Source: Candidatus Nitrosomirales archaeon (GTDB taxonomy: Archaea; Thermoproteota; Nitrososphaeria; Nitrososphaerales; UBA213). Taken from it: DNA of 64,000 nucleotides. The notes beneath the pieces were generated by a model. The model was not told the DNA's origin, made no database searches, and worked only from the letters and a program-made list of their open reading frames with translations. The position numbers and the translations under genes are program-made. The stretch is from contig JBMCYV010000012.1 in the NCBI GenBank assembly GCA_049199595.1, positions 3,660 through 67,659 of the forward strand. Reading direction: 5' to 3'. Of this stretch, positions 35,839 through 56,651 are shown one piece after another (within the stretch, counting starts at the first letter, position 1; every line of letters begins with the position of its first letter).

Positions 35839-35860
35839 TGGAGCATGGGGTACAATAAAA

Positions 35861-36172
35861 ATGAAATCAGTATTTGAAAACAGAAAGAAGCGAAGCAGAG
35901 AAGAGATTATTGCATCCATATTGTTTTCCGCAAAAAGAGGCTCTAGCAAAACAGGAATCATGTATGCTAATTACCTGAGCTTCAGCCAACTCAATAAATA
36001 TCTAAGCTTTGGGTTGAAGGCTAAAATACTCTTCATCAGTGATGATGGCAGATATTTTACAACTACAAAAGGACTTGAATACCTGTCATGCTTTGAGCAG
36101 GTTCATAATATTGAAAATAGCGCCTTGGCAAAGAGAAAAGCTCTCACAGAAATTTTAAGCAGTGAAGAATAA
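35861..36172 (+). CDS. small winged-helix DNA-binding protein (COG3432-like), first gene of the glycan operon
   Basis: ATG at 35861: MKSVFENRKKRSREEIIASILFSAKRGSSKTGIMYANYLSFSQLNKYLSFGLKAKIL..YFTTTKGLEYL. Its stop overlaps the next start. Confidence 0.65.
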   Translation: MKSVFENRKKRSREEIIASILFSAKRGSSKTGIMYANYLSFSQLNKYLSFGLKAKILFISDDGRYFTTTKGLEYLSCFEQVHNIENSALAKRKALTEILSSEE

Positions 36173-37110: not shown

Positions 37111-37116
37111 AGGATA

Positions 37117-38097: not shown

Positions 38098-38307
38098 TTG
38101 GTTCTAGCCTTTTCGTTCTGGGATATTGCATTGTGGTTAGCAGGCACATCTCTAACAATGTTGGTGACATCGGAGTTCTTAGGACCTCACTTGGGTAGGA
38201 AACATACTTTTTTCGAAGTAAAAAAATTAAGAACTGTCGCGTTAGTATTTGCAGTAGCCTTTGTTTTTACAATAGGAATTAGAATTCTAACTCTGACCAT
38301 AAAGTAG
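38098..38307 (+). CDS. small 2-TM membrane protein
   Basis: ORF track. It begins 1 nt after the previous stop. Two hydrophobic helices. Confidence 0.4.
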   Translation: MVLAFSFWDIALWLAGTSLTMLVTSEFLGPHLGRKHTFFEVKKLRTVALVFAVAFVFTIGIRILTLTIK

Positions 38308-38332
38308 CCAAAGCTGAGATACTGAAAACAAT

Positions 38333-41655: not shown

Positions 41656-41658
41656 TCG

Positions 41659-42621: not shown

Positions 42622-42626
42622 TCATA

Positions 42627-43703
42627 ATGAAAACTCTGCTAATTGCGTACGAGCTTTCACCTCCGTGGGATAACGGTCTAAAGGTCTATGGCAGGGGATT
42701 GAAGAATTCGCTAGAAAATATTGGCGACATGAATCTCACTACTATTACCAATATTAACGACATTTCAAGCAATAATTTGAAAGATTATGATTTTGTACAC
42801 GTTGTTCAGACTGGTATTCATCCATTCTCCGTGGCTCTTAAACTCTTCAAGCAGGCTACAATATTCAAACATATTGTTACGCCTTCGATTGGACTGAGGA
42901 ATTCACTTTCAACAAAACTTTGCTACAGCATGGTAAATAGCTTGCAGAAGCGACTAGTACGTTGCTTCTCTTCAAAATTTGTTGCAATTTCGTATTTCAT
43001 GAATAGTAACAACCTGATAATACCGCCGTCTATCGATACATCAACCTTTGTGAATATTGCCCGGCCAAACCAGGAAAAGATTTTGTCATTGTTGGACAAT
43101 AGTCCTACAAAATTTGGAATACATAACATCGCAAAGCGTTCAGACGGAGTAATATTGTATAGTGGACCGCTGACCAAGGACAGATTTCCATATGCTACGG
43201 TGTTGAATGCACTGAAGCAAACAAAATCAAGCCTTCTCATAGTGGGAAGAAGCACTAATAACGGAGCTGAACACGGTATGGTAGAAGAAATAATTGATCA
43301 TGTCAAGAAATTGGATCTAGAGGATAGAATATCGATTGTACAAAAGTTGCTGACAGAAGATGAAAAGGTAGATCTATTGAATTTTGCCGACATGGTGATA
43401 CAGCCATTCACAACCAACACTCAGGTGTATGTTGCTGTGGATCCACCCATATTTCTCCTGGAGGCAATGTCTTGCGGCAAGCCCGTTATTACTTCAAAGA
43501 CATACTCTTTTCAGTCACTGATAAAAAATGGCTACAACGGCTATGCTATCAACTGGGATGATCCAAGTGCTGTTGACGAGGCGCTAAGAGGCTGCCAGGC
43601 TACGAGTAAGCTTGGCCTAAATGCTAGGCAGACTATATTGAAGCAATTCTCTACTGAATTTGTTTCAGAAACAATCCAAGGGATCTACAATGATTACAAC
43701 TAA
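42627..43703 (+). CDS. GT-B (GT4-like) glycosyltransferase
   Basis: C-terminal FLLEAMSCGKPVITSKTYSFQSLIKNGYNGYAI. Confidence 0.8.
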   Translation: MKTLLIAYELSPPWDNGLKVYGRGLKNSLENIGDMNLTTITNINDISSNNLKDYDFVHVVQTGIHPFSVALKLFKQATIFKHIVTPSIGLRNSLSTKLCYSMVNSLQKRLVRCFSSKFVAISYFMNSNNLIIPPSIDTSTFVNIARPNQEKILSLLDNSPTKFGIHNIAKRSDGVILYSGPLTKDRFPYATVLNALKQTKSSLLIVGRSTNNGAEHGMVEEIIDHVKKLDLEDRISIVQKLLTEDEKVDLLNFADMVIQPFTTNTQVYVAVDPPIFLLEAMSCGKPVITSKTYSFQSLIKNGYNGYAINWDDPSAVDEALRGCQATSKLGLNARQTILKQFSTEFVSETIQGIYNDYN

Positions 43704-44379
43704 TCGAATCCCTCCGGCCATTATCTTTTTTGGCCCAGATGGATCTGGCAAGACTACACAGGCTGAATTGCTAATCAAGGAACTGAGGAGAAATGGTATC
43801 AGAAGTAGGAAATTATGGCTGCGGTCGCTTCACACATTCGCATTTCTGATATCAAAGGTCGCAATGCATACCATGGGTCTTCAAAGCGTCTATGATTTCA
43901 GGGCTAGATACTCCCACAAGAAATTCTTCAAAGGTATCTGGTACACCATTGAATTTTGCAGTATACTTCCACTTATCTTGTTCAGACTGCAATTGCCGTT
44001 AATGAAAGGATACACCATCGTCGCAGAAAGATATGTGATTGACTGGATTGTCTCCCTATCTTACGTTAGCCGAAACGAACGTCTATTAGATAGCAGTTTC
44101 GGGAGAGCGGCACTAAAGTTCATACCCAAGAATTCTTCACTAATTTATATAGATGCCACGTATGATGCAATTAGTTCACGAGGAAGAAACGAAGACAGCT
44201 TGGAGTATATCGAGTTTCAACGGAGATTATATCAAGAGATTGCGCGCAGGCTAAACGCAAAGGTAATAGATACATCAGATAAAACTCTCCAAGAGGTACA
44301 CAAATTGATATGCCAATATTCGCTCAACTCAAACACCTCAGCCTCCCAAGACATAGGACTAAGAAGAGATCTTGAGTAA
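43690..44379 (+). CDS. thymidylate-kinase-like P-loop kinase with a hydrophobic insertion
   Basis: ATG at 43690: MITTNRIPPAIIFFGPDGSGKTTQAELLIKEL.. (Walker A). ..AERYVIDWIVSLSY (DRY-like). A ~55-aa hydrophobic insert lies between them. Confidence 0.55.
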   Translation: MITTNRIPPAIIFFGPDGSGKTTQAELLIKELRRNGIRSRKLWLRSLHTFAFLISKVAMHTMGLQSVYDFRARYSHKKFFKGIWYTIEFCSILPLILFRLQLPLMKGYTIVAERYVIDWIVSLSYVSRNERLLDSSFGRAALKFIPKNSSLIYIDATYDAISSRGRNEDSLEYIEFQRRLYQEIARRLNAKVIDTSDKTLQEVHKLICQYSLNSNTSASQDIGLRRDLE

Positions 44380-44875
44380 ATCATCACTGCTCCTGATGGT
44401 TACGGTAGGGCTTGTACTCCTACTGACAAATCTTGACAATTCTAGTGCTGCGCCAGTAGAGCAAATCGATACAGCACTTCCGAATGCTGAAGGGGAGAAA
44501 ATATCGTCGATAATTAACGATGCGTTGAGCGCAATTCATGCAGCTGAAGCCTCGGGTGCCAATGTGTCACCGCTGGTGGATCAGTTCAATATCGCAATAG
44601 AGCTATTACGGCTAGCTGAGGGACCTGATTTTGGTTCATGCAGTTCTTTTGATCAGTGCACAGATAACGCGAACCAAATATTCGTATCAATCATAAATGA
44701 CGCAGATGGGCTGAGCGAGAACGCAAAGATGGAATACTATGAGAATATGGCTGTAGGAGAGATTTATGCAATTCTTATAGCATTTGCCTTATCGTTTGTT
44801 GGATTGTACCTTTATGGGCAATACAAATCCCATGAGCTAAAGAGATTTCTTGAAATGGAAGTTAAGGAGAATTAA
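44372..44875 (+). CDS. hypothetical secreted protein with C-terminal TM anchor
   Basis: Signal-like N-terminus (LLLMVTVGLVLLLTNLDNSSA), a helical body, and a C-terminal helix IYAILIAFALSFVGLYLYG. Confidence 0.45.
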   Translation: MSKSSLLLMVTVGLVLLLTNLDNSSAAPVEQIDTALPNAEGEKISSIINDALSAIHAAEASGANVSPLVDQFNIAIELLRLAEGPDFGSCSSFDQCTDNANQIFVSIINDADGLSENAKMEYYENMAVGEIYAILIAFALSFVGLYLYGQYKSHELKRFLEMEVKEN

Positions 44876-44878
44876 GAA

Positions 44879-45526
44879 ATGGATCAACCTTTATCGCATT
44901 GGAGAATCGCTCAAGAATTGATACGGTCAAGAAAGTTCCTAATAGCTTTCGCTTCTCTTGTCGCCCTGTTATCTCCATTGGCACTGATCTCTAATTCTGC
45001 CGGTGACCAAAAAGAAGGATATCTTACAATGATTACTCTTGGCAGTAGCATGAAAGCAGATGACTACTTCCCAAGTGCTAATAACACAGTAAACCTTTCT
45101 GAGCCTATAAAATGGTACATCAAGGTTTACAATGGAATGGACAAATCAGAATATCTCTCTCTCAGATTGAAGCTGCTCAACTCTACACAAACCATACCTG
45201 ATGATGTATCGAATACGCCCAGCCCAGTTCCTGAGCTAATTGAGTATCGGCAGTTGATATCAAAGCAATCTGAAGTGATAGTTCCCTTAGAGTGGAAAAT
45301 AACTGACATCGACAAGGGGGAAAGTGTTGTAACCATCCGGGAATTGATGATAAATGGTGAGAGAATAGATAACTTAGACATCAATAGTATAAATGGCCAA
45401 AACTTCAGAATAGTCCTAGAGCTCTGGAAATACGAGAGTGACAGTGGAGATTTTAGTTTTGTGTGGTCCTCAAACAATAAAGAGGCAAGTGTGTGGAATC
45501 AGATTTGGTTCAATATAAAGAATTAG
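44879..45526 (+). CDS. hypothetical N-terminally anchored protein
   Basis: ORF track. One N-terminal TM helix and a beta-rich ectodomain. Packed in the operon. Confidence 0.45.
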   Translation: MDQPLSHWRIAQELIRSRKFLIAFASLVALLSPLALISNSAGDQKEGYLTMITLGSSMKADDYFPSANNTVNLSEPIKWYIKVYNGMDKSEYLSLRLKLLNSTQTIPDDVSNTPSPVPELIEYRQLISKQSEVIVPLEWKITDIDKGESVVTIRELMINGERIDNLDINSINGQNFRIVLELWKYESDSGDFSFVWSSNNKEASVWNQIWFNIKN

Positions 45527-46137
45527 AAATCGGCCTTATCCAGTTAAAGGTTCTTGAAATAGTTCACACTCGTAAATGCAAGAAGGTACAAGAAATTGTA
45601 GAAATACTAAGACAGTCAGATTCAGCTCTTACCATTGACGAGATAAGAGAAGCTATTGAATCACTTCATGACGATGGAAAGCTCGTTTTGAATGAACCCA
45701 GACTGCAAGGGTCTTTTTTCAGCCACATTACAAAGAATTTTGATTTCATCGCTCTTCCACTCTGGCTAAGTTTAGCCGCAATCATCCTGACCATGATTAC
45801 GATTTATGTTACACCAGATATCCAAGAGCTACTACATGTAAGAATCATTTCAGGCTCTGCAGTTGTACTACTTATTCCTGGCTATGGATTGATTGGCTTG
45901 CTATTTCCCAGCAAAGATACTACAACACTTGAGCGCATAGGGTTCAGCTTTGCAATTAGTCTAGCACTAATTCCAATCCTGTGGCTCGTCATGACTTATT
46001 CGCCACTTGAAGCGAGTATAGATTCAATGGTGTTGGGCATGAGTGCCGCCGGAGCTTTATTGATATCGACTGGCGCATATAGGCAATTTTCGGCAAAAAA
46101 GGAGAGGGTTGCAGTGATGGTAGTAGATAACAAATGA
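45493..46137 (+). CDS. membrane protein with N-terminal wHTH-like domain and 4 TM helices
   Basis: LKVLEIVHTRKCKKVQEIVEILRQSDSALTIDEIREAIESLHDDGKLVL, followed by four hydrophobic helices. GTG/TTG start uncertain. Confidence 0.45.
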   Translation: MESDLVQYKELEIGLIQLKVLEIVHTRKCKKVQEIVEILRQSDSALTIDEIREAIESLHDDGKLVLNEPRLQGSFFSHITKNFDFIALPLWLSLAAIILTMITIYVTPDIQELLHVRIISGSAVVLLIPGYGLIGLLFPSKDTTTLERIGFSFAISLALIPILWLVMTYSPLEASIDSMVLGMSAAGALLISTGAYRQFSAKKERVAVMVVDNK

Positions 46138-47621
46138 AGCCAAAAACTTCGTTTAACAAATTTGCAAAAGGATCATATTTCCTAATACTGGACAATCTTA
46201 CGAATCTCGGCATTGGGGCGATCTTCTGGGTCGTTCTAGCAAAGATCGCTGAACCTGGTGTAATAGGACAAGCAATGGTCATCACGGGTTTTGCAACTAT
46301 CTTCATTGCGTTCACTGGGCATGGCATCCAGATCGGACTGTCAAAATACATCTCTGAATATGATGCAAGGAACATGCCAAATACTGTTAGACGGTTATTG
46401 AGAAACGGGATCAAAGGTGGTCTAATGATAAGTGCTGTATTGGTCGTAGCGATTTCGTTATTGTCGGGTCAAATATCAGAATCGGCCTATCAAAATGAAT
46501 CACTTGCATTGTTACTTGTATTTTTGATCGTGACATTCGTTCCCACACAGACCGTCATGTGGGTGCTCATTGGCGCATTCCAAGGGATGCAGGAAATGAA
46601 GTATGTTACGGCAACAGACCTCATATTCCAACTTTCAAGAATGGGTTTTGCCGTGTTTGGTGTTCTATATGGTCTTGATGTTTTTGGAATTCTTCTTGGA
46701 TTTGCACTTGCTTCATTTCTATCCTTAGGGGTTTGTTATTTCTACCTTTTACCGCGAGCGATTCCGAAATCAACAGACCAAAAGGAATCTGAATCAAAAG
46801 AAGGAATGAAACAAGTAACTCGCTTCACCAGCTTCAACTATTTCGAGATAGGAATTAAGACATTCAGTGTGCAACTTGGGATACTCGTCCTTGGTACACA
46901 AAGCTTCGAGTGGGCTGCCTTTTACGGATTGGCGTTGCTTATTTCAAAAATTGTAGGGTCATTTTCGCGATCGGTAGGAATGGCACTTCTTCCTGCGGCT
47001 TCGGTCCAGCTAGCAACTGGCAGCAAAGTCGAACTGCGAAATATGGTCAATACTGCTGTAAGAATTTCTACAATGATCAGCGGTTTTGGATTTATTATCC
47101 TAGTTATAGATCCAACGTACTTCCTTAACCTAATATCAGACAAATATGTCGAAGCTGCGTTGGCTCTGCGGATCTTGGCTGCATCTGCAATAATTACTGC
47201 TATGGCCTCGATATTTACATCACTCCTAAATGCCTCAAATCGGGCCAAAGATGTGGCCAAAATAGGATTTATTTCATCTATGATCGGCATTGCGCTCACG
47301 CTTATTCTCCCACAATTCATTGGCTTGGAAGGAGCTGCACTTGCATTTCTTACTAGCTCAATAATTAACTTGAGCCTAGCATTACTTGCGCTCAAAAAGG
47401 AAAAGATCACTGCCTCATCGCGAAGCATGATTAGACCATTTGTTGCTATCATAAGCGGAATTCTTGTAGGTCAAGTGTTTGTATTTTTCAACCAAATATT
47501 ATTGGGCATAATTATCGCAATTGTCTGCTATATCGGGTTTTGCATAGCTTACCGAGTTACCACAAGAGTGGAAATAAAGAAATTGATTAGCATAGCAGTA
47601 AACAAAAAGACTGCAGAGTAA
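46134..47621 (+). CDS. Wzx-like oligosaccharide/polysaccharide flippase (MOP superfamily)
   Basis: About 12-14 TM helices. N-terminal ..FAKGSYFLILDNLTNLGIGAIFWVVLAKIAEPGVIGQ.. is typical of the polysaccharide-biosynthesis flippase family. Confidence 0.8.
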   Translation: MKPKTSFNKFAKGSYFLILDNLTNLGIGAIFWVVLAKIAEPGVIGQAMVITGFATIFIAFTGHGIQIGLSKYISEYDARNMPNTVRRLLRNGIKGGLMISAVLVVAISLLSGQISESAYQNESLALLLVFLIVTFVPTQTVMWVLIGAFQGMQEMKYVTATDLIFQLSRMGFAVFGVLYGLDVFGILLGFALASFLSLGVCYFYLLPRAIPKSTDQKESESKEGMKQVTRFTSFNYFEIGIKTFSVQLGILVLGTQSFEWAAFYGLALLISKIVGSFSRSVGMALLPAASVQLATGSKVELRNMVNTAVRISTMISGFGFIILVIDPTYFLNLISDKYVEAALALRILAASAIITAMASIFTSLLNASNRAKDVAKIGFISSMIGIALTLILPQFIGLEGAALAFLTSSIINLSLALLALKKEKITASSRSMIRPFVAIISGILVGQVFVFFNQILLGIIIAIVCYIGFCIAYRVTTRVEIKKLISIAVNKKTAE

Positions 47622-47741: not shown

Positions 47742-48797
47742 TTGTTAAGTAGAAGTGTAAGAATTCCCAGCTTCTTCTATGTCAATAAGGGAGCTGTAGA
47801 TACAATTAATGAAATCTTGGCTACAGAAACAGTTAATTCGGCAAGAACAATGATTGTCTCGGGAAGATCCTTTACAAAGTCTATTGGAGATCGTGTAAAG
47901 AGATCTATTGATGGCGAGTGCTCGAGGATTTATCTGAATAATAACACACCAGGTTCAATTAATGAAATCGAAAATGCCATCAAGAATTTCGATCCCACTT
48001 TGGTTGTGGGTGTTGGTGGAGGAAAAGTTCTGGATGCAACAAAGTTTTGCGCGTATAGATTAGATAAGCCATTCATGGCTATTCCAACCGTCCTCTCAAA
48101 TGATGGGATATCCTCACCTGTGTCTGTCATAAACACAGACCATGGCACAACTAGCATTGGCGCCAATCCGCCTGTAGGAATAGTAGTAGATATTGATGTT
48201 ATTAAAAAGGCGCCTGTCGAGACTGTTCTGTCTGGCATAGGTGATCTGATATCTAATATTTCTGCAGTAGATGACTGGAACTTAGCCAATAGATACGTGG
48301 GTGAAAAGATAGACAAATTTGCAGAGATACTAGCCAAGAACTCTGCTGAAGGCTTCGTTCAACATCTTGTAGCTGCTGGAAATGACTCTATGTCAATTCT
48401 AACTGATCGAATCCTTACTTTACTTGCCGAAGGTCTAATACAAAGTGGGATAGCAATGTCATTAGCAGGTTCTTCAAGACCTTGCAGTGGCTCAGAACAC
48501 CTAATTAGTCATGCCCTTGATCGCCTGTTGAATTTTGAAAAGCCCCACGGCCTTCAGGTTGGTCTCTCAACTATCTTTACAATTGCGCTTAGGAAAAAAG
48601 ACGCCTCTAACCTAGTTAACCTATATCAAAAAATAGGTTTTCCAACTACTCCAGCTCAATTGGGTATACCCATGGCCACTTTTGTTGAAGCGATAAATCT
48701 TGCTCCCACTACAAGGAAAGAAAGATTTACGATACTAGATGTAGTGACAGATTCCGAAATAAAGAGGGCATTAGACGATGCCTATGGCACAGGCTAA
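47742..48797 (+). CDS. egsA: sn-glycerol-1-phosphate dehydrogenase family protein (iron-ADH/DHQS fold)
   Basis: GVGGGKVLDATKF.., PFMAIPTVLSNDGISSPVSVI, GDLISN, SGSEHLISHALD are G1PDH-type signatures. Whether this is the housekeeping lipid enzyme or a cluster-specific paralog cannot be told from the window. Confidence 0.7.
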   Translation: MLSRSVRIPSFFYVNKGAVDTINEILATETVNSARTMIVSGRSFTKSIGDRVKRSIDGECSRIYLNNNTPGSINEIENAIKNFDPTLVVGVGGGKVLDATKFCAYRLDKPFMAIPTVLSNDGISSPVSVINTDHGTTSIGANPPVGIVVDIDVIKKAPVETVLSGIGDLISNISAVDDWNLANRYVGEKIDKFAEILAKNSAEGFVQHLVAAGNDSMSILTDRILTLLAEGLIQSGIAMSLAGSSRPCSGSEHLISHALDRLLNFEKPHGLQVGLSTIFTIALRKKDASNLVNLYQKIGFPTTPAQLGIPMATFVEAINLAPTTRKERFTILDVVTDSEIKRALDDAYGTG

Positions 48798-48907
48798 GGT
48801 TGTTGTCGTGCAATGATAAAGTTGAGCCAACCAAGTACTGTTTTCGCTATATATCACCCAAGTTACATAAGGCTTATGAAGAAACTCTACAACAAAGTGA
48901 CCAGTCA

Positions 48908-49669
48908 ATGCCAAGTCCAAAGCTAGCTATTATTCTTGCCGCTGGAATGGGTTCGAGACTAGGTGAGTACAGTAAGCATCTACCAAAGACCCTGTTAACA
49001 GTAGGTAATTCCACAATATTTGATAGGATGGTCGTAGGTTTAAGTATGATCGGGATAAAAGATATTGTCGTTATCACAGGTCACGCTGCGTCAACTTTGG
49101 AGACTCATGCCCTATCATATTCTAGCAAACTTGTAAATAATAATGTCAATTTTCATTTTATTCGGAATAACAATCTTGATATCGGAAACATCTACTCCTT
49201 TTGGCTAGCAAGAGGCAGAATGAACGAGGATTTTATCTTACTCAACAGCGATGTCGTTTTTGATTACGGGATTCTGAATCTTTTGAAAAATGACATACAC
49301 AGCTCTTCTTTGGTCATTGATGACTCCAAAACTCTCGGTGAAGAAGAAATGAAGGTTAATGTAACGGAAGGAGAGATCATTAAAGAAATCAGCAAGAAGT
49401 TGGATCCGATCTCCGCCGACGGCGAATACATTGGAATCATGAAGCTCTCAAGTGGTGATGCTACAAAAGTTATAGAACAGGTGGAGAGACTCATGTCTGA
49501 AAAGCAATTTCCGCTATATTATGAAGATGCACTGAGGAGAATCGCAAATAATAATGATTTTCTCGTTGCCTGCAGTACAAAGGGTTTGCCATGGACTGAA
49601 ATAGATACAGTTGAAGACATGCAATATGCCCAAACTATCATTTTACCACAATTGCAAAGTCCAGCATGA
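48908..49669 (+). CDS. sugar/alcohol-phosphate nucleotidyl(cytidylyl)transferase
   Basis: The in-frame ATG at 48908 gives MPSPKLAIILAAGMGSRLG..LPKTLL, the G-x-G-x-R-L signature at the N-terminus. The ORF track starts at TTG 48800. Confidence 0.75.
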   Translation: MPSPKLAIILAAGMGSRLGEYSKHLPKTLLTVGNSTIFDRMVVGLSMIGIKDIVVITGHAASTLETHALSYSSKLVNNNVNFHFIRNNNLDIGNIYSFWLARGRMNEDFILLNSDVVFDYGILNLLKNDIHSSSLVIDDSKTLGEEEMKVNVTEGEIIKEISKKLDPISADGEYIGIMKLSSGDATKVIEQVERLMSEKQFPLYYEDALRRIANNNDFLVACSTKGLPWTEIDTVEDMQYAQTIILPQLQSPA

Positions 49670-49706
49670 TTTGGGTTCAATTAGTTTGCTAGGGGAAATA
49701 TAGTAA

Positions 49707-50483
49707 ATGTCAAAAATTACAATCAAGGATATAAAGGATAGGTATCTAGTTTCCAAAGAAGAAGAGAAGAAGTTCAAATGGACATACTATGTGCGGAGGC
49801 CCCTATCATATTATCTGGCATGGTCTTGCTTAAACCTGGGCATTTCTGCAACAAAGGTTACTGTACTTTGGCTGATAATTGCGGTGACTGGTTGCATCTT
49901 TATTGCTTCAGGAGATTATCTTAGTACAATAATCGGTACATCCTTGCTTGAATTAGCCGTAATTCTAGACTGTGTTGACGGTCACATTGCTAGGCTTACC
50001 CGATCCACACGCATTGGACAAATCATGGATACTTGGGTTGGAGAAATATTGTTAGTCTCCTCACTTTTCTCTATTGGAATAGGTCTATCGAATAGCAATG
50101 AGGAACTTATGGTCAACAAAATAGCTGGTCTATTTGGATTTGCAGTAGATACGGAAACATTCCTTTATCTCGGATTCTTTACAGCACTCGCGTCACTATC
50201 CTCTTGGACCGTCAGGCTTCATTGGCGTACGATTACACAGAAACTATCATTGAATCAAGGGGAACCAGACAAAGATTTGAGAGAATCAAAAAGAGTTCTA
50301 ATCCTTGATAATTTGTTTCACTACTCTGGTGCATTAACAATGCTAATGGTCGCATCAGCCATTACCAGGACTCTGGACCTATTGTTGATCATTCTGAGCA
50401 TAATTATTGGTGTGTACCTACTGGGAATTATGTATCGTATCCTGAGAAAAGCTCGTTCTTTAGAGGCAGATGGCTCCGAATAA
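49707..50483 (+). CDS. CDP-alcohol phosphatidyltransferase-family membrane protein
   Basis: DCVDGHIARLTRSTRIGQIMDTWVGE gives D-x2-DG-x2-AR-x7-G-x3-D-x3-(G). The last Asp of the canonical motif is replaced. About 6 TM helices. Confidence 0.8.
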   Translation: MSKITIKDIKDRYLVSKEEEKKFKWTYYVRRPLSYYLAWSCLNLGISATKVTVLWLIIAVTGCIFIASGDYLSTIIGTSLLELAVILDCVDGHIARLTRSTRIGQIMDTWVGEILLVSSLFSIGIGLSNSNEELMVNKIAGLFGFAVDTETFLYLGFFTALASLSSWTVRLHWRTITQKLSLNQGEPDKDLRESKRVLILDNLFHYSGALTMLMVASAITRTLDLLLIILSIIIGVYLLGIMYRILRKARSLEADGSE

Positions 50484-50624: not shown

Positions 50625-52301
50625 ATGGTGCATTTAGGAGGACATAGCTATTTGGCATTAAGTTATTCCTCGATGATTGTAATTGAAGTTTTGATATTAG
50701 TTGCTGCCTTTACTTTTCTTTTATTCCTGACAAGGAAGGGGGTAGTATCTAGATCGCTATTGTTTGGACGACAACGGGCCAAGCTAATAGCTTCATTGCT
50801 ATTGGTGGCCTCAGTTGTTATATTCATTGCTCCGAAAATTAATCTACTTAATAATTACGAGTACACCAAACTCACGGCTGACTCATGGGATCATTATTTG
50901 GTAGTAAACAGCTGGAGCGAAACAGACGGATTTCAAACTAAGACTTATCCTTATTATACAAAATTCCCAGTCACATATTCAGTGCAAATAATGCTGCATC
51001 AACTATCAGGGTTATCTCTGTTTGATTCCATGACTGTCTACTATCTTTTTGTAGGTATTGGTGGCTTGCTAATTATCTACGGTATTGGAAGGGAGATAAT
51101 AAAGGGTTCAGGTACTGAGAAAATGATTTATGCTGGTATTGCTGGACTAGTCTACTCCTTCCTACATTACTTTAACCTGCTATTTGTACAGCAATATCCA
51201 ATCGCGATTGGAACTGTAGTCGGGCTCTTGTGCGTATATTCATTCATTCTGTTAGTAAAAAGAAGGAAAAGAGCTTTGATTTACATGTTTGTCGCAGGAG
51301 TTGTACTTGCCATATCACATCCTTTCGCCCCTATTTTTCTCTCCCTTCTATTCCTAACCTATTATATCACGAATAGGGTAGTTCCGTTTAGATCAAATCT
51401 GTATAAGGGTCTAATATCAAGACGCACGGCCCTTTTGATGTCATTTACGATTCTAATTGCTGGCATGACTTATTCTATGTTTGTAGCCACGGGGACTTTT
51501 GAGAGTGGTGTCAGGTGGTCAGAACTCAATACCCAGTATACTTTGCAAAAACTTTCATCCCAATTTCTGGAGTCGACTTTATCTGGTGTGGAGGAGTCAT
51601 TTGAGGCTCGTTATGGCATAATAGACTCGATGATCTATCCGCTAAACTGGGCGCTGCCAGCCTCTGCATCTATAAGCGTTCTAATCTTCTTCTTGATTAG
51701 GAAATTAAAGGTCGAGGAAGATGAAGAACTGCACATCCTCTTTCCGCTATCGATCATGTCAACATTGCTATTCCTACTGTCATTTGCATTCTCATTTGTT
51801 GAATTCGCATTTAGCAGGTATTTCGGAGCGTTTGCACTAGCACTCAATATCCCAGTTACCGCCTTTTTGATTTTTAGGATTGTGAAAACGAGAATTGCTT
51901 TTGCAAAATATATTGTATACGGAATAGTAGGCTTTGCGATAATATCATCTGTCACAGATCCTACCTTTTTTCCGTACATCGGTTATGAAACATCAGTCTA
52001 CAGAGATGCAAAAATATATCCCTCAGAATTGGACATTGTCGCTTGGAACGACTTTTATTCATCAGTGAGTAGTCAACAAAAGATAATCGAGACCGACCTG
52101 CATGGAGCCCCGATTAAATACTTTAAAGAGACACACGACTACAATAACGAGATAGTAGTTAACCCAAATACGTACACCCTCACCAGTGACAATGCTTACG
52201 TCGTTATCGACAAGGACAAGACTGACCTTACGCCACAACTACAGGATAACCCCTTGTTAGATAGAGTGTATGATAATTCGAAAATTTACTTTGGCCATTA
52301 A
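50625..52301 (+). CDS. polytopic membrane protein, candidate GT-C glycosyltransferase or glycan polymerase
   Basis: About 12 TM helices plus a ~110-aa C-terminal soluble domain. An acidic first loop (TADSWDHY). No WWDYG motif seen, so it is not an obvious AglB. Confidence 0.4.
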   Translation: MVHLGGHSYLALSYSSMIVIEVLILVAAFTFLLFLTRKGVVSRSLLFGRQRAKLIASLLLVASVVIFIAPKINLLNNYEYTKLTADSWDHYLVVNSWSETDGFQTKTYPYYTKFPVTYSVQIMLHQLSGLSLFDSMTVYYLFVGIGGLLIIYGIGREIIKGSGTEKMIYAGIAGLVYSFLHYFNLLFVQQYPIAIGTVVGLLCVYSFILLVKRRKRALIYMFVAGVVLAISHPFAPIFLSLLFLTYYITNRVVPFRSNLYKGLISRRTALLMSFTILIAGMTYSMFVATGTFESGVRWSELNTQYTLQKLSSQFLESTLSGVEESFEARYGIIDSMIYPLNWALPASASISVLIFFLIRKLKVEEDEELHILFPLSIMSTLLFLLSFAFSFVEFAFSRYFGAFALALNIPVTAFLIFRIVKTRIAFAKYIVYGIVGFAIISSVTDPTFFPYIGYETSVYRDAKIYPSELDIVAWNDFYSSVSSQQKIIETDLHGAPIKYFKETHDYNNEIVVNPNTYTLTSDNAYVVIDKDKTDLTPQLQDNPLLDRVYDNSKIYFGH

Positions 52302-52391: not shown

Positions 52392-53804
52392 ATGACAGAT
52401 CAAGATACTAAGAAAGTGAAGCTGTTGGTGATAGGCTTGGATTCTATGCCCTCCACCCTATTCAAGAATTTGGATATCCTTCCGAACATTAGAAAAATGG
52501 TGGAGAATGGCTTTCATTCTGTGTTAGAGAGCTGTCACCCCCCAATTACAATTCCAGCTTGGATGGTGATGATGACCGGCAAGTCGCCCGGTGAATTGGG
52601 GATTTATGGATTTAGACATCGAAAGGGGCCTTCATACAACGAAGGGTGGATAGCTACATCAAACTCTATAAAGGAGAAAAAGGTCTGGGATTATCTTGCC
52701 GAACAAGGTAAGAAATCATGTCTGATAGGCGTTCCTCCAAGTTATCCTCCCTATCCTGTAAACGGAAATCTCGTATCATGCTTCATTACCCCCAGCAACA
52801 AAAATGATTATACATATCCGCCTGAACTGAAACAAGAAATTGAATCGCTGGTCGGCAATTACATGTTCGACGTAGTATTTAGAACTGACGATAGAGACGC
52901 GATTTTAAAAGCCCTCTATGAAATGACCGAAAAGCGCTTTGCCGTCATTAAGCAACTAATGAAGAAGGATACTTGGAACTTCTTAATGTTCGTAGAGATT
53001 GGGGTAGATAGGATTCATCATGCATTTTGGAAATTTCATGACAAGACTCATCCAAGGTATATTCCGGGTAACAAATATGAAAATGTTATTACAGAATACT
53101 ACAAATTCATAGACAAAAAGATAGGCGAGCTTATGGCGCTAGCAGACGATGATACCTTCATCCTTACTGTCTCAGATCATGGCACCGCAGGAATGAAGGG
53201 TTGTTTCTGCATAAATGAATGGATGATTCAGCAAGGATACCTGTCAATGAAGCGTTACCCAGACAAACAGACGGATATTGACAAATGCGATATTGATTGG
53301 TCAAAAACTAGTGCATGGGGTTGGGGTGGATATTATGCACGGATATTTCTCAACATAAAGGGCAGAGAACCAAATGGAGTGATACCACAGGAGGATTACG
53401 AGAAGGCAAGAGAAGAGCTGCGCCAAAAGTTATCAAAAATTAGAGGGCCGAATGGAGAAGTGTTTGAAAACAAAATCTTTACTCCTGAGCAGCTTTATGA
53501 AAAGGCAATCGGTGATAGACCTGATCTCATGGTATATTTTGATAACCTATATTGGAGGTCCGCAGGCACAATAGGTCATAATTCATTGTACTTGAGTGAA
53601 AATGATACGGGGCCAGACGACTCTGTTCACTGGTATGATGGTATCATAATACTGTATAACAAGAAAAAGGCCAATAAAATGCAACGGGAGCGGATGACCA
53701 TTTACGATGTCGCCCCTAACATATTGAAGATGATGGGATTGCAGATTCCAAACGATATGCATGGAAGTGTAATTCCCGAGATAGAGCAATGGCTCAAAAG
53801 CTAG
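52392..53804 (+). CDS. alkaline-phosphatase-superfamily protein (nucleotide pyrophosphatase/phosphodiesterase type)
   Basis: ATG at 52392. KLLVIGLDSM.., ..CHPPITIPAWMVMMTGKSPGELGIYGF (Thr nucleophile context), ..VSDHGT... No signal peptide. Confidence 0.7.
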   Translation: MTDQDTKKVKLLVIGLDSMPSTLFKNLDILPNIRKMVENGFHSVLESCHPPITIPAWMVMMTGKSPGELGIYGFRHRKGPSYNEGWIATSNSIKEKKVWDYLAEQGKKSCLIGVPPSYPPYPVNGNLVSCFITPSNKNDYTYPPELKQEIESLVGNYMFDVVFRTDDRDAILKALYEMTEKRFAVIKQLMKKDTWNFLMFVEIGVDRIHHAFWKFHDKTHPRYIPGNKYENVITEYYKFIDKKIGELMALADDDTFILTVSDHGTAGMKGCFCINEWMIQQGYLSMKRYPDKQTDIDKCDIDWSKTSAWGWGGYYARIFLNIKGREPNGVIPQEDYEKAREELRQKLSKIRGPNGEVFENKIFTPEQLYEKAIGDRPDLMVYFDNLYWRSAGTIGHNSLYLSENDTGPDDSVHWYDGIIILYNKKKANKMQRERMTIYDVAPNILKMMGLQIPNDMHGSVIPEIEQWLKS

Positions 53805-53848
53805 ACATTCTGGCACGCTCGGCTCACTTGTAAGAGGTTTTGCAAGAA

Positions 53849-54376
53849 ATGCAATTGAATGGGAGAATATTCAGACCAATTGTGATAGCTTTTATTATTA
53901 TTGTCTTCCAACCAAGTTGGGCTAGCGCAGAAATTCCTCAGAATGAATACATTCTCAACATCGATGGGTATGATTTTCCAGTAGATTACACGATCACAGG
54001 TGCGACTATTACTTCGATTCTTGCTGACAAAGATGCTGCCGCACTCCGGATATTAATTAATGCCCAAGATGCTGGAATTCTGACCATCGCGCTTCCAAGG
54101 ATTATGATAGACTCTCTGGATGGCGAAGCCGATAAGGCATTTGTTGTTCACCTGTCAGAAGAAGGTATCGATGATGGCGGAAATCCAATTCAAACAATTG
54201 AAATGTATGATGACTCGTCCGACTACCGAATATTACAATTTGAATTCACCGAGAGGACAACACAAATACAGATAACAGGTACGCACATTGCCCCGGAATT
54301 CGGCCCGATCTACGTTCTTGCCGGACTGATGATCTTGACCATGCTCATCGCACGAATTGCAAGAAATAGCCAGTAG
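53849..54376 (+). CDS. small secreted protein with PEFG C-terminal sorting signal
   Basis: Signal peptide. One copy of the ~105-aa module found twice in 11848..13083 (..ILTIALPRIMIDSLDGEADKAFVVHL..ILQFEFTERTTQIQITGT). Ends HIAPEFGPIYVLAGLMILTMLIARIARNSQ. Confidence 0.8.
   Translation: MQLNGRIFRPIVIAFIIIVFQPSWASAEIPQNEYILNIDGYDFPVDYTITGATITSILADKDAAALRILINAQDAGILTIALPRIMIDSLDGEADKAFVVHLSEEGIDDGGNPIQTIEMYDDSSDYRILQFEFTERTTQIQITGTHIAPEFGPIYVLAGLMILTMLIARIARNSQ
54290..54373 (+). other. C-terminal sorting signal, PEFG class
   Basis: APEFG + 16 hydrophobic residues + RIARNSQ. Confidence 0.65.
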
Positions 54377-54504
54377 CTGAAGTCAGATAAACAATTTTGA
54401 GGATAACTGAACCAATTATCTATATCCCGACCTACATAACATCAACTTCACAGAAGTTATAAAATACCAAAATATCTGATGGTTGTTTGACCCAAATAGA
54501 AGAG

Positions 54505-55059
54505 ATGAAGCAATATCAACAGCCCGGATTTGGGTTTGTCATATGGCTAACAGGATTGCCCGGATCGGGAAAAACCACTATCGCGAAAGAGTTGGCTCCA
54601 AAGCTCAGGGAAGCAGGTCTTAAAGTCGAGCTGTTTGATGGAGACGAGGTTAGGAAGCAGTTAAGCCCAGATCTGGGTTTTACAAAAAAGGATAGAGAGG
54701 TCCATGCTAGAAGAGTCGTATATCTTAGCAAAATACTTGCAAGGAATGGTATAGTGTCTATTGTCTCTTTAATATCGCCTTATCGTGAATTTCGCGAATT
54801 TGCTAGAAAGGAAATCGTCAATTTCGTTGAAGTATTTGTCAAGGCATCATTAGAGACTTGCATTAAAAGAGATCCAAAAGGACTTTACAAAAAGGCTCTA
54901 AATGGAGAAATAACCGATCTGACTGGCCTACAAGACGTGTACGAAGAGCCATTAAATCCAGAAGTGATGGTTGAGACAGAAATGGAACCTGTTGAAGCCA
55001 GCACACAAAAAATTATTCAAGGGCTCATGGACAAAGGGTACGTTGCCCCAATGAGTTAA
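54505..55059 (+). CDS. cysC: adenylyl-sulfate (APS) kinase
   Basis: GFVIWLTGLPGSGKTTIAKEL..LFDGDEVRKQLSPDLGFTKKDREVHARRV..IVSLISPYREFREFAR..VFVKASLETCIKRDPKGLYKKA. Full APS-kinase signature. An upstream TTG at 54487 is also possible. Confidence 0.9.
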   Translation: MKQYQQPGFGFVIWLTGLPGSGKTTIAKELAPKLREAGLKVELFDGDEVRKQLSPDLGFTKKDREVHARRVVYLSKILARNGIVSIVSLISPYREFREFARKEIVNFVEVFVKASLETCIKRDPKGLYKKALNGEITDLTGLQDVYEEPLNPEVMVETEMEPVEASTQKIIQGLMDKGYVAPMS

Positions 55060-55079
55060 TCCAGGGACTGTAACTGATT

Positions 55080-56651
55080 ATGGTAGTCATTACACTTGCA
55101 CTCGATGGGTTTGACGAAAACCTATTTCAGTTAGAAGAATTCGGAAGCATACGTGATCTCTTTAGGAACAACCCTTCATCTCCTCTTCAAAGTACGCTCC
55201 CTGCTCTAACTCCTTCTGCCTTTGTCTCTATGCAGACTGGCAAGGATGTCGGAAAACACGGAGTATCTGGTTTTCTTAGATTCGATGGCTCATCCGCACG
55301 TCCTTACACAGGATCTGACATAAAGGACAAGACATTTTATGAAATTCTCTCAGAGCAGGGAAAGAAATGTTTCTTATTGAGTATGCCGTACAGCTATCCC
55401 GCTCGTATACATGGCGATGTAGTATTTGATTGGCTTTCAATAGGTAAGGCACATACCCATGACTGTGTTTATCCGTCCACGCTGTTCGAATCTTATCCTG
55501 AATTATATGATTACAAGGTATTTCCAGATGGAGGTAATGGGATGGTCGATTACATGCAAGATGTCAAAAAGTCCTCAGAAGCACTTGATAGGATAATAAG
55601 ACATGTCATATCGTCAAAAAGATATGATTACAATTTCTTCTTGATAAGAGCGACTGATTGGATACAACATTCCATGTTGAGCCAAATAATGAATGGCGAC
55701 AAATCTGCCAAAGTTAGAATTGCAAGGGAAGCTTTTGCCGTTATAGATAAGACTGTCAGATATGTTGCAGAAAATATCCGAGGTGACGATCAATTGGTCG
55801 TAATGTCTGATCATGGGTTTAAAACCTACAAACATCGGTTCTACATCAATGATTGGTTGAAAGAGAACGGTTATGTAGTGACATCAAACAAGACTACGGA
55901 TTCATTAGAGAAGACCAAATATCCATTCTTGTTTGATGATGACTCGATAGGCTCAACGAATACGTCACATGTGCCCGGTTTCATAAGCAGGATAATGCGA
56001 GAACATCACACTCTTATGAGAACCGCTGGACACTTTAGAGGCAAGCTTGAACATATGCTGAACCGACGCTTTGTTCTTAGTCAACCTATAGATCTGGACA
56101 AATCGGAGGCATTCGCAGTAGAAGAGTCCGCTGGAGCTATATTTCTAAACAAGAAAATGTTATCTGAGGACCAAGTGCTGGATACGAAGAAGGAGATTCT
56201 GTCTAAACTAGGCTCTATCAAGGAGATTGAAACATTTGATAGCAGAGCAATGTATGGTCCTTCAGCAGCAAGTACAGTACCAGACATATATCTCAGCTCT
56301 TCAAAGTATTGGATAAGACGAGGTTTGGTTGGGACTGTTTTCTCTGATATCTACCAAGACCATCACAGGAGGCAAGGGATTCTTGTATTATCTGGAGATG
56401 CCTTTGAAAAGGCCCCAACCAATCCTACCATGATGGATCTAGCACCCACTATACTTCACATGTTTAATTGTCCCGTACCTGAGGATATGGACGGAAGGGT
56501 TCTCCATGAGTCACTAAAGAGCTCATCAGAGCAAGCAAAGAGACCTGTCAAGTATGTCCAATCCAGTGCTTCAACTGTTCAGGAACAAGTTCTATCAAAA
56601 GCCGAACAGGAATTGATAGAAGACCGCCTGAAGTCTTTGGGATACATGTGA
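55080..56651 (+). CDS. alkaline-phosphatase-superfamily protein (NPP type), second copy
   Basis: VITLALDGFD.., ..STLPALTPSAFVSMQTGKDVGKHGVSGF.., ..VMSDHGF... A distant paralog of 52392..53804. Confidence 0.7.
   Translation: MVVITLALDGFDENLFQLEEFGSIRDLFRNNPSSPLQSTLPALTPSAFVSMQTGKDVGKHGVSGFLRFDGSSARPYTGSDIKDKTFYEILSEQGKKCFLLSMPYSYPARIHGDVVFDWLSIGKAHTHDCVYPSTLFESYPELYDYKVFPDGGNGMVDYMQDVKKSSEALDRIIRHVISSKRYDYNFFLIRATDWIQHSMLSQIMNGDKSAKVRIAREAFAVIDKTVRYVAENIRGDDQLVVMSDHGFKTYKHRFYINDWLKENGYVVTSNKTTDSLEKTKYPFLFDDDSIGSTNTSHVPGFISRIMREHHTLMRTAGHFRGKLEHMLNRRFVLSQPIDLDKSEAFAVEESAGAIFLNKKMLSEDQVLDTKKEILSKLGSIKEIETFDSRAMYGPSAASTVPDIYLSSSKYWIRRGLVGTVFSDIYQDHHRRQGILVLSGDAFEKAPTNPTMMDLAPTILHMFNCPVPEDMDGRVLHESLKSSSEQAKRPVKYVQSSASTVQEQVLSKAEQELIEDRLKSLGYM

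Follow-up and report, generated by a model that had tools for sequence, protein, structure and literature searches.

Four genes on the forward (+) strand, at 52392-56651 of the 64-kb window (the whole stretch of DNA that was analysed), form a run in which two alkaline-phosphatase-superfamily proteins, here called AP1 and AP2, bracket a gene for a PEFG-tailed protein and cysC. AP1 (52392..53804, +) is NPP-like and of the COG3379 type; its ORF (52356-53804) opens at GTG 52356, but comparison with homologues makes ATG 52392 the likely true start, which would give a protein of 470 aa. The second gene (53840..54376, +) encodes a small secreted protein of 178 aa, which has a signal-like N-terminal segment and a C-terminus (...APEFGPIYVLAGLMILTMLIARIARNSQ) whose PEFG motif, hydrophobic helix and basic end make up a PEFG-CTERM-type sorting tail. 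This protein has no Pfam match. Only in this lineage does its gene separate AP1 from CysC; it is missing from the syntenic relative L086, where the order AP1-CysC-AP2 is otherwise kept. The third product, CysC (54505..55059, +; ORF opening at TTG 54487), is by its sequence a genuine, PAPS-making adenylyl-sulfate (APS) kinase, as the preliminary description of this DNA had stated: it matches PF01583 (E 1.1e-56), scores 217.2 bits against TIGR00455 (cut-off 138.7), and the motifs GLPGSGKTT, DGD, LISPY and KGLYKKA are legible in it. As sat, cysC and cysH also serve sulfur assimilation in Thaumarchaeota (PMC7819960), this kinase need not serve sulfation alone. AP2 (55080..56651, +; 523 aa) is a more divergent, NPP/PafA-like protein that closes the run.

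The surroundings are those of an archaeal cell-surface glycan cluster. Adjoining AP1 on its upstream side, here and in L086, is a polytopic membrane protein of 558 aa (50625..52301, +) with no match in Pfam or NCBIfam, for which a polymerase or GT-C-like function is no more than a guess. Immediately before it the array carries a triad (47742..50483, +), also syntenic in L086, of a G1P-dehydrogenase-like Fe-ADH_2 protein (PF13685, E 9.5e-34), a nucleotidyltransferase (PF00483, E 5.9e-10) and a CDP-alcohol phosphatidyltransferase-family protein (PF01066, E 2.4e-7), which are genes for a CDP-activated polyol-phosphate. In the remaining glycan-assembly array (31108..47621, +), Pfam scans identified GT4, GT2, a wHTH protein, an archaeosortase-like protein of 748 aa (38333-40579, +; NCBIfam exosortase/archaeosortase signature TIGR04178), a further GT2, NTP_transf_5, GT1, a P-loop protein, DUF1616 and a Wzx-type flippase (46134-47621, +). 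A polysaccharide pyruvyl transferase (27289..28662, PF04230, E 1.3e-40) is encoded on the opposite (-) strand; both it and the glycerophosphate triad had been recognized earlier, and the Pfam matches bear this out.

Two divergent NPP-like proteins

Profile and structure searches of both AP proteins, proposed in the preliminary description, returned PF01663 and NPP/PafA-type folds, in agreement with the NPP type suggested there, while PF00884 scores remained sub-threshold for both. PF01663 spans the full length of AP1 (E 1.4e-48) and is also found in AP2 (E 1.2e-19), and the Thr-nucleophile contexts lie in the genes to which they had been assigned, CHPPITIPAW in AP1 and LPALTPSAF in AP2. The two-metal ligands and Thr core are intact in both proteins: T53, D206, H210, D262, H263 and H413 are invariant in an alignment of 63 AP1 sequences, with D17 present in at least 90%, and D9, T44, D193, H197, D244, H245 and H429 are invariant among 54 aligned AP2 sequences. 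The two are distant paralogues of one another (24% identity, E 8e-25). Both lack a signal peptide, as previously noted, because the first beta-strand and metal-binding Asp start too near the N-terminus, at residues 10-17 in the AF2 model of AP1 (pLDDT 93) and residues 3-9 in that of AP2 (pLDDT 88). Both are therefore soluble, cytoplasmic enzymes, and within the alkaline-phosphatase superfamily they belong to an uncharacterised NPP/PafA-like branch (COG3379).

The best fold matches are ENPP1, ENPP3 and Xac NPP for AP1 (TM 0.52-0.59) and PafA, ENPP1 and SPAP for AP2 (TM ~0.5). Core fold, two-metal ligands and Thr nucleophile are shared with the NPPs (Xanthomonas NPP, ENPP1/3) and PafA-type alkaline phosphatases, and folds of this type bind adenine nucleotides and UDP-sugars. 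Unlike these secreted relatives, AP1 and AP2 are cytoplasmic, have a large additional segment inserted behind the SDHG motif, carry many family-specific invariant residues (RHRKG, WGWGGYY, ENDTGPDD), sit in Sat/CysC cassettes, and align structurally at only 10-18% identity (TM ~0.5-0.6). Proteins of the AP1/AP2 type had no sequence match in the PDB. Hydrolases account for every one of the closest folds (NPPs, PafA, phosphonoacetate hydrolase) and, to our knowledge, the two-metal Thr site is established for phosphoryl but not for sulfuryl transfer; both points count against the sulfotransferase role that we propose below.

It would be very surprising if AP1 and AP2 were ordinary nucleotide pyrophosphatases or alkaline phosphatases that scavenge phosphorus independently of the cluster. 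Database names (‘alkaline phosphatase family protein’, ‘nucleotide pyrophosphatase’) favor such a role, and a genome paper took a gene of this kind in Ca. Nitrosothermus to help when phosphorus is limiting (PMC7819960), yet a cytoplasmic protein with neither signal peptide nor membrane anchor, extreme divergence from characterised NPPs, with just 13-18% identity in structural alignments, and a conserved association with Sat and CysC, including fusions, all argue against it.

The C-terminal tail of AP2 (residues 500-523, ...EQELIEDRLKSLGYM; 56577..56648, +) is the sole match in the window to an HMM of a small RHH protein (E 2e-5), the same motif ending the RHH protein that heads the AP1 cassette elsewhere. 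In the AF2 model this tail is a flexible linker, disordered at 501-505 and followed by a helix at 507-519, and its motif occurs in 53 of 120 AP2 homologues and in none of 120 AP1 homologues.

AP1 in a cassette with PAPS-making genes

AP1 orthologues (52-71% identical) are held in a cassette ordered as RHH protein, Sat, an optional DHH PAP phosphatase, AP1 and CysC in 80 genomes that span Thaumarchaeota, Asgard archaea, Bathyarchaeia, Aminicenantes and Firmicutes. CysC is fused to AP1 or lies directly downstream of it in at least 60 of the 76 loci with room for it, an adjacency far above chance. In at least 47 of 70 loci AP1 directly follows a genuine Sat, and in one locus CysN-CysC replaces Sat. 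Fusions of AP1 to CysC occur in several lineages (P0048, P0051, P0062, P0094, P0114), and other fusions join AP1 to PAPS enzymes as CysC-AP1 (P0255), Sat-AP1 (P0251) and AP1-PK-Sat (P0300), or to further partners as AP1-GT2 (P0243), AP1-methyltransferase (P0361) and nucleotidyltransferase-AP1 (P0296). Such Rosetta-stone fusions tie AP1 to PAPS enzymes and glycan enzymes alike. The glycan neighbors of the cassette include a TviC-like epimerase (37 loci), UDP-sugar dehydrogenases (22 loci), GT2/GT4, Wzz, Wzy and flippases, with uronic-acid sugar-nucleotide genes often following it.

The preliminary description had reported neither an ATP sulfurylase nor a classical sulfotransferase in the 64 kb. 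We likewise found no ATP sulfurylase in the window by Pfam scans of all substantial ORFs or by phmmer with a genuine Sat, and no classical sulfotransferase by Pfam scans or by a jackhmmer search of the six-frame translation that used seven canonical sulfotransferases as queries. The gene for the missing sulfurylase probably just lies in another part of this genome; most other genomes place a genuine Sat directly upstream of AP1. Canonical sulfotransferases, in turn, occur in only 2 of ~86 AP1 loci.

Some features of the cassette would suit a helper role for AP1 in the PAPS pathway, as a hydrolase that removes PAP (a CysQ analogue), edits APS/PAPS or hydrolyses the pyrophosphate from Sat, the true sulfotransferases being encoded elsewhere. 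AP1 stands between Sat and CysC and is about as conserved as they are, its closest folds (NPP and PafA) are hydrolases, and both PAPS operons with a PAP phosphatase and eukaryotic PAPS synthase-pyrophosphatase fusions exist. Distant AP2-like proteins, moreover, share their clusters in L087 and L089 with between one and five canonical sulfotransferases, and PAP must be removed after sulfation and PAPS reduction alike (PMC10322725). We nevertheless consider this role unlikely. Eight cassettes already encode a protein closely related (E 1e-79) to MtPAPP (PDB 8A8K), a characterised PAP phosphatase of the DHH type, so AP1 is unlikely to be a PAP phosphatase itself, and a 3′-phosphatase fused to a PAPS-making kinase would risk a futile cycle. 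In Nitrososphaerales (the window, L001, L026, L086) AP1 remains with glycan genes though Sat is absent nearby, and in some bacteria it remains with epimerase and dehydrogenase genes where both Sat and CysC are lacking, which argues against a Sat-serving role. Fusions to GT2, methyltransferase and nucleotidyltransferase domains, the two to three highly divergent paralogues per cluster (window; L001), and the near absence of nearby sulfotransferases from ~80 cassettes in glycan loci are also unlike a housekeeping hydrolase. The gene set of Methanothermococcus thermolithotrophicus similarly clusters ATPS, APSK and MtPAPP (PMC10322725), as Sat, CysC and, in eight loci, the MtPAPP homologue are clustered here, but it lies with PAPS and sulfite reductases, whereas the AP1 cassette lies among glycan genes and adds AP1 and the small RHH protein.

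An improbable alternative, to our minds, is that the substrates of AP1 and AP2 are phosphoryl-containing groups on the glycan, such as glycerophosphate or sugar-phosphate, which they transfer or cleave in the manner of LtaS, EptA or MdoB-type AP-superfamily transferases, or that they act as a phosphomutase in sugar-nucleotide supply, with the link to CysC indirect. The superfamily does include phosphoryl-group transferases and phosphomutases with a Thr/Ser covalent intermediate, the JGI family name is ‘phosphohydrolase/phosphomutase’, the CDP-polyol-phosphate triad lies directly upstream in the window, and AP1 often precedes sugar-nucleotide enzymes or is fused to a nucleotidyltransferase. However, nearly all other AP1 loci lack the triad, the known phosphoryl-group transferases of the superfamily are anchored in the membrane and have their catalytic domains outside the cytoplasm, unlike the soluble, cytoplasmic AP1 and AP2, and the repeated Sat/CysC fusions and the cross-phylum Sat-AP1-CysC order would be left unexplained.

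A possible role in glycan sulfation

We hypothesize that AP1 and AP2 are the PAPS-coupled sulfotransferases of this glycan cluster, in an uncharacterised NPP-like branch, a reading to which we give an even chance. A functional tie of these AP-superfamily proteins to PAPS is supported by the cassette, by the independent fusions and by the near absence of canonical sulfotransferases. Some Bathyarchaeia loci with Sat-AP1 but no CysC nearby count against a sulfotransferase. The reaction and niche proposed, in glycan clusters with PAPS supply, would be those of classical PAPS-dependent sulfotransferases (PF00685, PF13469 and related), from which AP1 and AP2 differ in their unrelated fold and lack of 5′-PSB or 3′-PB motifs; the classical enzymes transfer directly, with neither metals nor a covalent intermediate.

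Cytoplasmic AP-superfamily sulfotransferases of archaeal glycans have a published precedent in Agl30 (VNG1056C) and Agl31 (VNG1057C), the N-glycan sulfotransferases of Halobacterium salinarum, whose activity was shown by deletion and heterologous expression (Zaretsky et al., 2025, PMC11980604). Like AP1 and AP2, they are alkaline-phosphatase-like-core proteins inside an archaeal glycosylation cluster, and one member of the pair is a soluble protein of the cytoplasm; the two divergent paralogues there serve two positions, target uronic-acid sugars and replace absent classical sulfotransferases (PMC11980604). Agl30 and Agl31 are sulfatase-like, with 5G2U and 6HHM as best structural matches, whereas AP1 and AP2 fall into the PF01663 branch, which is NPP/PafA-like and has Thr as nucleophile; this difference in branch counts against our reading. 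Sulfation by Agl30 and Agl31 is demonstrated but the paper makes no mention of a donor or of PAPS (PMC11980604), whereas the candidates AP1 and AP2 have an explicit link to PAPS synthesis.

That the AP proteins supply the missing transfer step had been proposed in the preliminary description; the tie to PAPS and the precedent of Agl30/Agl31 strengthen the proposal, whereas its donor and acceptor are our inference, as are a covalent intermediate and the preference for sulfuryl transfer over phosphoryl transfer or hydrolysis. CysC, with an ATP sulfurylase encoded elsewhere in the genome, would supply PAPS, which the nucleotide slot of the NPP-like fold would take up; the two-metal site would then activate the conserved Thr (T53 in AP1, T44 in AP2) or the acceptor hydroxyl directly, the sulfuryl group would pass to a sugar hydroxyl, possibly via a covalent sulfo-Thr intermediate, and PAP would leave.

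The evidence is unequal for the two proteins, AP1 being a conserved member of the cassette and AP2-like proteins being variable. Bacterial and archaeal AP1 are >50% identical, as might be expected if the small acceptor, or the step itself, were conserved and the target were not a glycan peculiar to one lineage, although such identity is also compatible with a housekeeping step on a universal small molecule and to that extent counts against a sulfotransferase. The acceptor of AP1 is probably a conserved one, for example a UDP-(N-acetyl)hexuronic acid or an early lipid-linked sugar. AP2 is a variable paralogue and a candidate for a second sulfotransferase, probably serving a second position or a different acceptor; since AP2-like proteins co-occur with canonical sulfotransferases in other organisms, they are not simple replacements for them. 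On this reading the cassette would be a mobile unit for sulfation with AP1 as its conserved enzyme, and AP1 is the best candidate here for an undescribed kind of sulfate-attaching enzyme.

APS kinase and NPP-like proteins in a surface-glycan array

From 31 to 64 kb the window is a single long plus-strand array for a surface glycan: genes for GT4/GT2 enzymes, an archaeosortase-like protein and a Wzx flippase are followed by a triad (G1P-dehydrogenase-like, nucleotidyltransferase and CDP-alcohol transferase genes), a 558-aa membrane protein, and then AP1 (52392–53804, +; PF01663, E 1e-48), a PEFG-tailed secreted protein (53840–54376, +), the APS kinase CysC (54505–55059, +) and AP2 (55080–56651, +; PF01663, E 1e-19). 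The best database matches are from Nitrososphaerales, and an 81% identical syntenic relative from this order (L086) keeps the order flippase–triad–membrane protein–AP1–CysC–AP2 but lacks the PEFG gene. Directly 3′ of AP2 lies a 2298-aa secreted surface protein (56794–63690, +), in which 12 K319L-like PKD repeats and four LamG (Laminin_G_3) modules form a repeating pattern and two PLD-like (PLDc_2) phosphodiesterase domains make up the C-terminal end. Elsewhere in the window, a second PEFG-CTERM protein (11848–13083, −; a CHRD-domain protein ending ...VPEFGSLAIMVVSMAIVGTIVATSRFHRF), together with a 748-aa protein of the archaeosortase/exosortase family that is encoded within the glycan array and has a long C-terminal extension (38333–40579, +), suggests that sorting system and glycan cluster act on a common set of surface proteins.

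The identification of CysC as a genuine APS kinase, made in the preliminary description, is secure: it scores 217.2 bits against TIGR00455 (cut-off 138.7), aligns over positions 2–151 of the 152 in PF01583 (E 1.1e-56), and every motif is readable in the translation, namely GLPGSGKTT (Walker A P-loop), FDGDEVR (DGD, Mg/APS), LISPYREFR (lid) and PKGLYKKAL. Its further claim that the 64 kb hold neither ATP sulfurylase (Sat) nor a classical sulfotransferase was borne out by Pfam, NCBIfam and jackhmmer searches of the window, which encodes no sulfatase-like protein, TauE permease or DHH phosphatase either. Seven genuine sulfotransferases drew zero jackhmmer matches in the window, and relaxed Pfam, NCBIfam and jackhmmer searches of its unannotated ORFs disclosed no hidden classical sulfotransferase. 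A 239-aa P-loop protein with hydrophobic, membrane-like segments (43660–44379, +; conserved in L086) was rejected as a hidden sulfotransferase because its dTMP-kinase-like Walker A (FFGPDGSGKTT) is of kinase type and not a PSB motif. No weight attaches to the lack of Sat in the window, since Thaumarchaeota have been reported with sat, cysC, cysH and sir (PMC7819960) and the AP1 cassette described below usually contains Sat.

AP1 and AP2 are only 24% identical to each other, and each has a two-metal site with a Thr nucleophile (D17, T53, D206, H210, D262, H263 and H413 in AP1; D9, T44, D193, H197, D244, H245 and H429 in AP2), these seven positions (six metal ligands plus Thr) being invariant or nearly so in alignments A1, A2 and A3. 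In both models (pLDDT 93 and 88) the fold's first strand starts right at the N-terminus and the proteins therefore lack signal peptides, in agreement with the earlier picture of two signal-less NPP-type proteins around the kinase. The models match ENPP1, ENPP3, Xac NPP, PafA and SPAP with Foldseek probability 1.0 and TM 0.45–0.59 (best E 6.5e-20 for AP1, 1.2e-14 for AP2), at identities of 10–18% to the structural matches, and PDB sequence searches with the two proteins gave no significant match. PF00884 scored 18.3 bits with AP1, under its cut-off of 25, and did not match AP2; the profile and structure searches that had been called for favour NPP/PafA folds, not sulfatases. Classical PAPS sulfotransferases (PF00685, PF13469) are distinguished by their fold and their 5′-PSB/3′-PB motifs, whereas AP1 and AP2, like all other ORFs of the window, have no Pfam sulfotransferase match.

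Substrate choice in NPPs depends on an Asn that contacts a phosphoryl oxygen and on an aromatic nucleotide sandwich. By hand alignment only, the NPP segment ‘HGIVxN’ corresponds to ‘LGIYGF-RHRK’ in AP1, where a basic cluster seems to take the place of the Asn. Segments invariant in AP1 across domains are RHRKG, WGWGGYY and ENDTGPDD. The uncharacterised family to which both proteins belong, COG3379, is commonly mislabelled as alkaline phosphatase.

The AP1 cassette across genomes

A scan of one genome per species, with an alignment of AP1 orthologues as query, returned 495 relatives, and the best 80 loci (52–71% identical to AP1) were analysed. They come from archaea (Thaumarchaeota, several Asgard lineages, Bathyarchaeia, Hydrothermarchaeota, Methanomethylicota and Archaeoglobaceae) and bacteria (Aminicenantes, uncultured Eubacteriales and Desulfotomaculum). 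ORF calling and clustering of these loci revealed a recurrent, same-strand order RHH–Sat–AP1–CysC with genes that often overlap: a small RHH protein (∼72 aa) heads the cassette in 49 of the 80 loci, Sat immediately precedes AP1 in at least 47 of the 70 loci with room for it, and CysC is fused to AP1 or immediately follows it in at least 60 of 76. In one Aminicenantes locus CysN–CysC replaces Sat, and some bacterial loci keep RHH–AP1–epimerase–dehydrogenases without Sat or CysC. The neighbours include a TviC-like epimerase (37 loci), UDP-sugar 6-dehydrogenases (22) and a TauE-family permease (11), and frequently nucleotidyltransferase, GT2, GT4, Wzz and Wzy genes. Natural fusions with AP1 N-terminal to CysC number seven among the 120 closest database homologues, and 1.8 billion cluster representatives, of which 13,312 scored as family members (E ≤ 1e-3), added Sat–AP1, CysC–AP1, AP1–pyruvate-kinase-barrel–Sat, AP1–PK, nucleotidyltransferase–AP1, AP1–GT2 and AP1–methyltransferase. 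A link between AP1 and PAPS metabolism has very good support; the cassettes jointly encode sulfate uptake, PAPS activation and PAP removal, and are seated in glycan loci.

Several variants of this arrangement were observed. Two fusion proteins lack a CysC domain: P0300 (1151 aa) joins an AP1 domain to a pyruvate-kinase barrel and a complete ATP sulfurylase, and P0359 (786 aa) joins an AP1-family domain to the barrel, which might serve ATP regeneration or as an alternative kinase. Four Bathyarchaeia loci (L057, L059, L065 and L066, at ∼8800–12700) carry Sat–AP1 followed by two tandem PhoU + TrkA_C proteins, with no CysC within 10 kb, which raises the question of whether APS is used there instead of PAPS. 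In Ca. Nitrosothermus koennekii (L006, 6431–11386), Sat, a 607-aa AP-like protein and the AP1 orthologue stand in a row. An ‘alkaline phosphatase’ has been reported in Ca. Nitrosothermus only and read as an aid under phosphorus limitation (PMC7819960); that statement may refer to this gene set, and the phosphorus-limitation reading would then probably be wrong. Among plasmid or secondary-replicon records with a COG3379-like protein, all 61 of 61 are haloarchaeal (e.g. NZ_CP044524.1, 464258–465973), from genera including Halorussus, Halobaculum, Haladaptatus, Haloterrigena, Natrinema and Haloferax, and the one glycan-type neighbourhood inspected, in Halorussus (L090), contains GT2, GT4, GT39 and DUF354 genes.

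What, then, does AP1 contribute? That it might be a non-homologous ATP sulfurylase, working through an AMP–Thr intermediate and sulfate, was rejected, as most genomes have directly upstream of it a Sat that is genuine by NCBIfam (NF003166, 547 bits; TIGR00339, 413 bits). A role as helper hydrolase, either a PAP phosphatase like CysQ or a pyrophosphatase serving Sat, seems unlikely to us, the PAP-phosphatase form being the strongest rival. In eight archaeal cassettes, however, a DHH protein is encoded immediately before AP1 (with Sat on its other side in the cassettes that have one) and matches PDB 8A8K at E 1e-79, the biochemically characterised, highly PAP-specific phosphatase MtPAPP of Methanothermococcus thermolithotrophicus (PMC10322725). 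Because the role is already filled in those eight cassettes by an MtPAPP homologue, the case for AP1 in it is weakened; AP1 and AP2 also match neither group of PAP-phosphatase families (CysQ/FIG; NrnA or MtPAPP DHH), and AP1 is probably not a PAP phosphatase. Nor is it probably a pyrophosphatase serving Sat: AP1 is found away from Sat yet with glycan genes in the window, in three further Nitrososphaerales loci (L001, L026 and L086) and in the bacterial RHH–AP1–epimerase loci, and such a role is a poor fit with fusions of AP1 to GT2, methyltransferase and nucleotidyltransferase domains. No PAPS reductase or sulfite reductase recurs in the AP1 loci, and the cassette is therefore not part of an assimilatory reduction set; one protein cluster (c27) considered as a PAPS reductase proved to be an ABC ATPase.

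AP2-type proteins and a shared C-terminal tail

AP2-like proteins are variable, one occurring within 10 kb of AP1 in ∼16 of 80 loci. Distant members share glycan clusters with canonical sulfotransferases, of which L087 has five and L089 one, or, in L088, with sulfatase-like proteins. AP2-type enzymes accompany sulfation genes rather than strictly substituting for sulfotransferases, and this company lowers our confidence for AP2. In L087 (2279–11643) the five canonical sulfotransferase genes are interspersed among GT2/GT4 genes with one LGY-tailed AP2-like protein; this is a heavily sulfated-glycan locus, in which the role of its COG3379 protein could be separated from that of classical sulfotransferases.

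The modelled C-terminal tail of AP2 (56577–56648, +) is a disordered linker with a short helix, ending ...EQELIEDRLKSLGYM. Its consensus, EExxvKeRLraLGYid, is also the C-terminus of the RHH protein that heads the cassette, and an HMM of the RHH protein has the AP2 tail as its sole match in the window (E 2e-5), which itself lacks the RHH gene. The pattern, an acidic run and then ...RL(K/R)xLGY(I/L/M), ends three unrelated kinds of protein, and is found on 53 of 120 AP2 homologues and on 0 of 120 AP1 homologues. It is carried by RHH proteins (L003, 8570–8800; L066, 8603–8833; and 47 other loci), by cytoplasmic sulfatase-like proteins (L019, 3603–6565; L055, 17354–18724) and by a 73-aa protein just upstream of the haloarchaeal family member in L090 (8689–8910). 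The RHH protein has a ribbon-helix-helix-like N-terminus (..vsIPtxLyxkieexIkgtefxSVssYVtxVLre..), has no Pfam or NCBIfam match, and at a few Bathyarchaeia and Thaumarchaeota loci carries an additional ∼140 aa fused to its N-terminus. AP2-type enzymes have the tail in cis, whereas beside AP1 it is provided in trans; it looks like a common docking or functional element and may act as a relay.

A putative sulfuryl-transfer role and its meaning

A classical sulfotransferase is detectable in only two of about 86 AP1 loci (L035 and, weakly, L079), by a regular-expression screen that caught five of seven known enzymes and a jackhmmer screen that recovered all seven seeds. AP1 is the sole always-present cassette protein without an assigned function. 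With PAPS cassettes seated in glycan loci where sulfotransferases are almost absent, AP1 becomes a candidate for the missing enzyme. Putative sulfotransferase activity is, in our view, the best explanation for AP1 and AP2, at about even confidence. The earlier proposal that the AP proteins supply the missing transfer step is partly supported, for AP1 through its conserved cassette and fusions, but not as a strict replacement in the case of AP2, given its company in L087 and L089.

Enzymes of the AP superfamily are cross-reactive between phosphoryl and sulfuryl transfer, and sulfate monoesters carry a single negative charge, as do the phosphodiesters preferred by NPP sites. That AP1 and AP2 perform phosphoryl-group chemistry seems to us improbable. 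For sulfuryl transfer, PAPS from CysC would enter the nucleotide slot with its sulfuryl group at the two-metal centre, where Thr53 (AP1) or Thr44 (AP2) would attack sulfur to give a sulfo-enzyme and release PAP; alternatively, the site might activate an acceptor hydroxyl that takes up the sulfuryl group directly. A separate phosphatase would afterwards clear the PAP. The very high conservation of AP1 across domains, as in its invariant segments, points to a conserved acceptor, which might be UDP-uronic acid or an early lipid-linked sugar.

The Haloferax protein Agl7 (HVO_2046) is reportedly implicated in sulfation. In Halobacterium salinarum, VNG1056C (Agl30) and VNG1057C (Agl31) add sulfate to the N-glycan's iduronic and glucuronic acids, as shown by deletion and by expression in Haloferax volcanii; they are sulfatase-like, and the paper mentions neither PAPS nor any other donor (Zaretsky et al., 2025, PMC11980604). 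Like Agl30/Agl31, AP1 and AP2 combine an alkaline-phosphatase-like core with genes in a glycosylation cluster (GT2, GT4, flippase, archaeosortase). Since that Halobacterium work, the notion that cytoplasmic AP-superfamily proteins act as sulfotransferases in archaeal glycan clusters has a precedent. In contrast to the published description of Agl30/Agl31 as sulfatase-like, AP1 and AP2 are of the NPP/PafA-like branch, and we do not regard them as Agl30/Agl31-family members because PF00884 stays under its cut-off and sulfatases are not among the best folds. The TviB/TviC-like neighbours suggest that uronic-acid sugars are targets at AP1 loci too. Our literature searches found no relevant report on an NPP-like or COG3379 sulfotransferase, or on sulfated glycans of ammonia-oxidising archaea. 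More speculatively, COG3379 enzymes could constitute a third, mechanistically distinct class of PAPS-dependent sulfotransferase (NPP fold, two-metal site, covalent sulfo-Thr), spread between Archaea and Bacteria as a self-contained cassette, with the ‘...RLxxLGY’ helix of the AP2-type or RHH protein as a docking element or even a Tyr-sulfate relay arm; we hold this tentatively, and rather less firmly than the activity itself.

If AP1-type proteins are sulfotransferases, ∼13,000 representative sequences (50% clustering) are currently misnamed under the label ‘alkaline phosphatase family protein’, which is sometimes read as a phosphorus-scavenging trait. The family would then add a metal-dependent, possibly covalent route of sulfuryl transfer, of relevance to enzymology and to sulfated-sugar synthesis, and the cassette offers a compact, directly testable gene set. 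It would also link the 2025 finding in Halobacterium with a defined donor pathway, help to explain glycan sulfation in the many archaea that do it without classical sulfotransferases, and be a marker of sulfated surface glycans in Thaumarchaeota, Asgard archaea, Bathyarchaeia, Aminicenantes, Firmicutes and haloarchaea.
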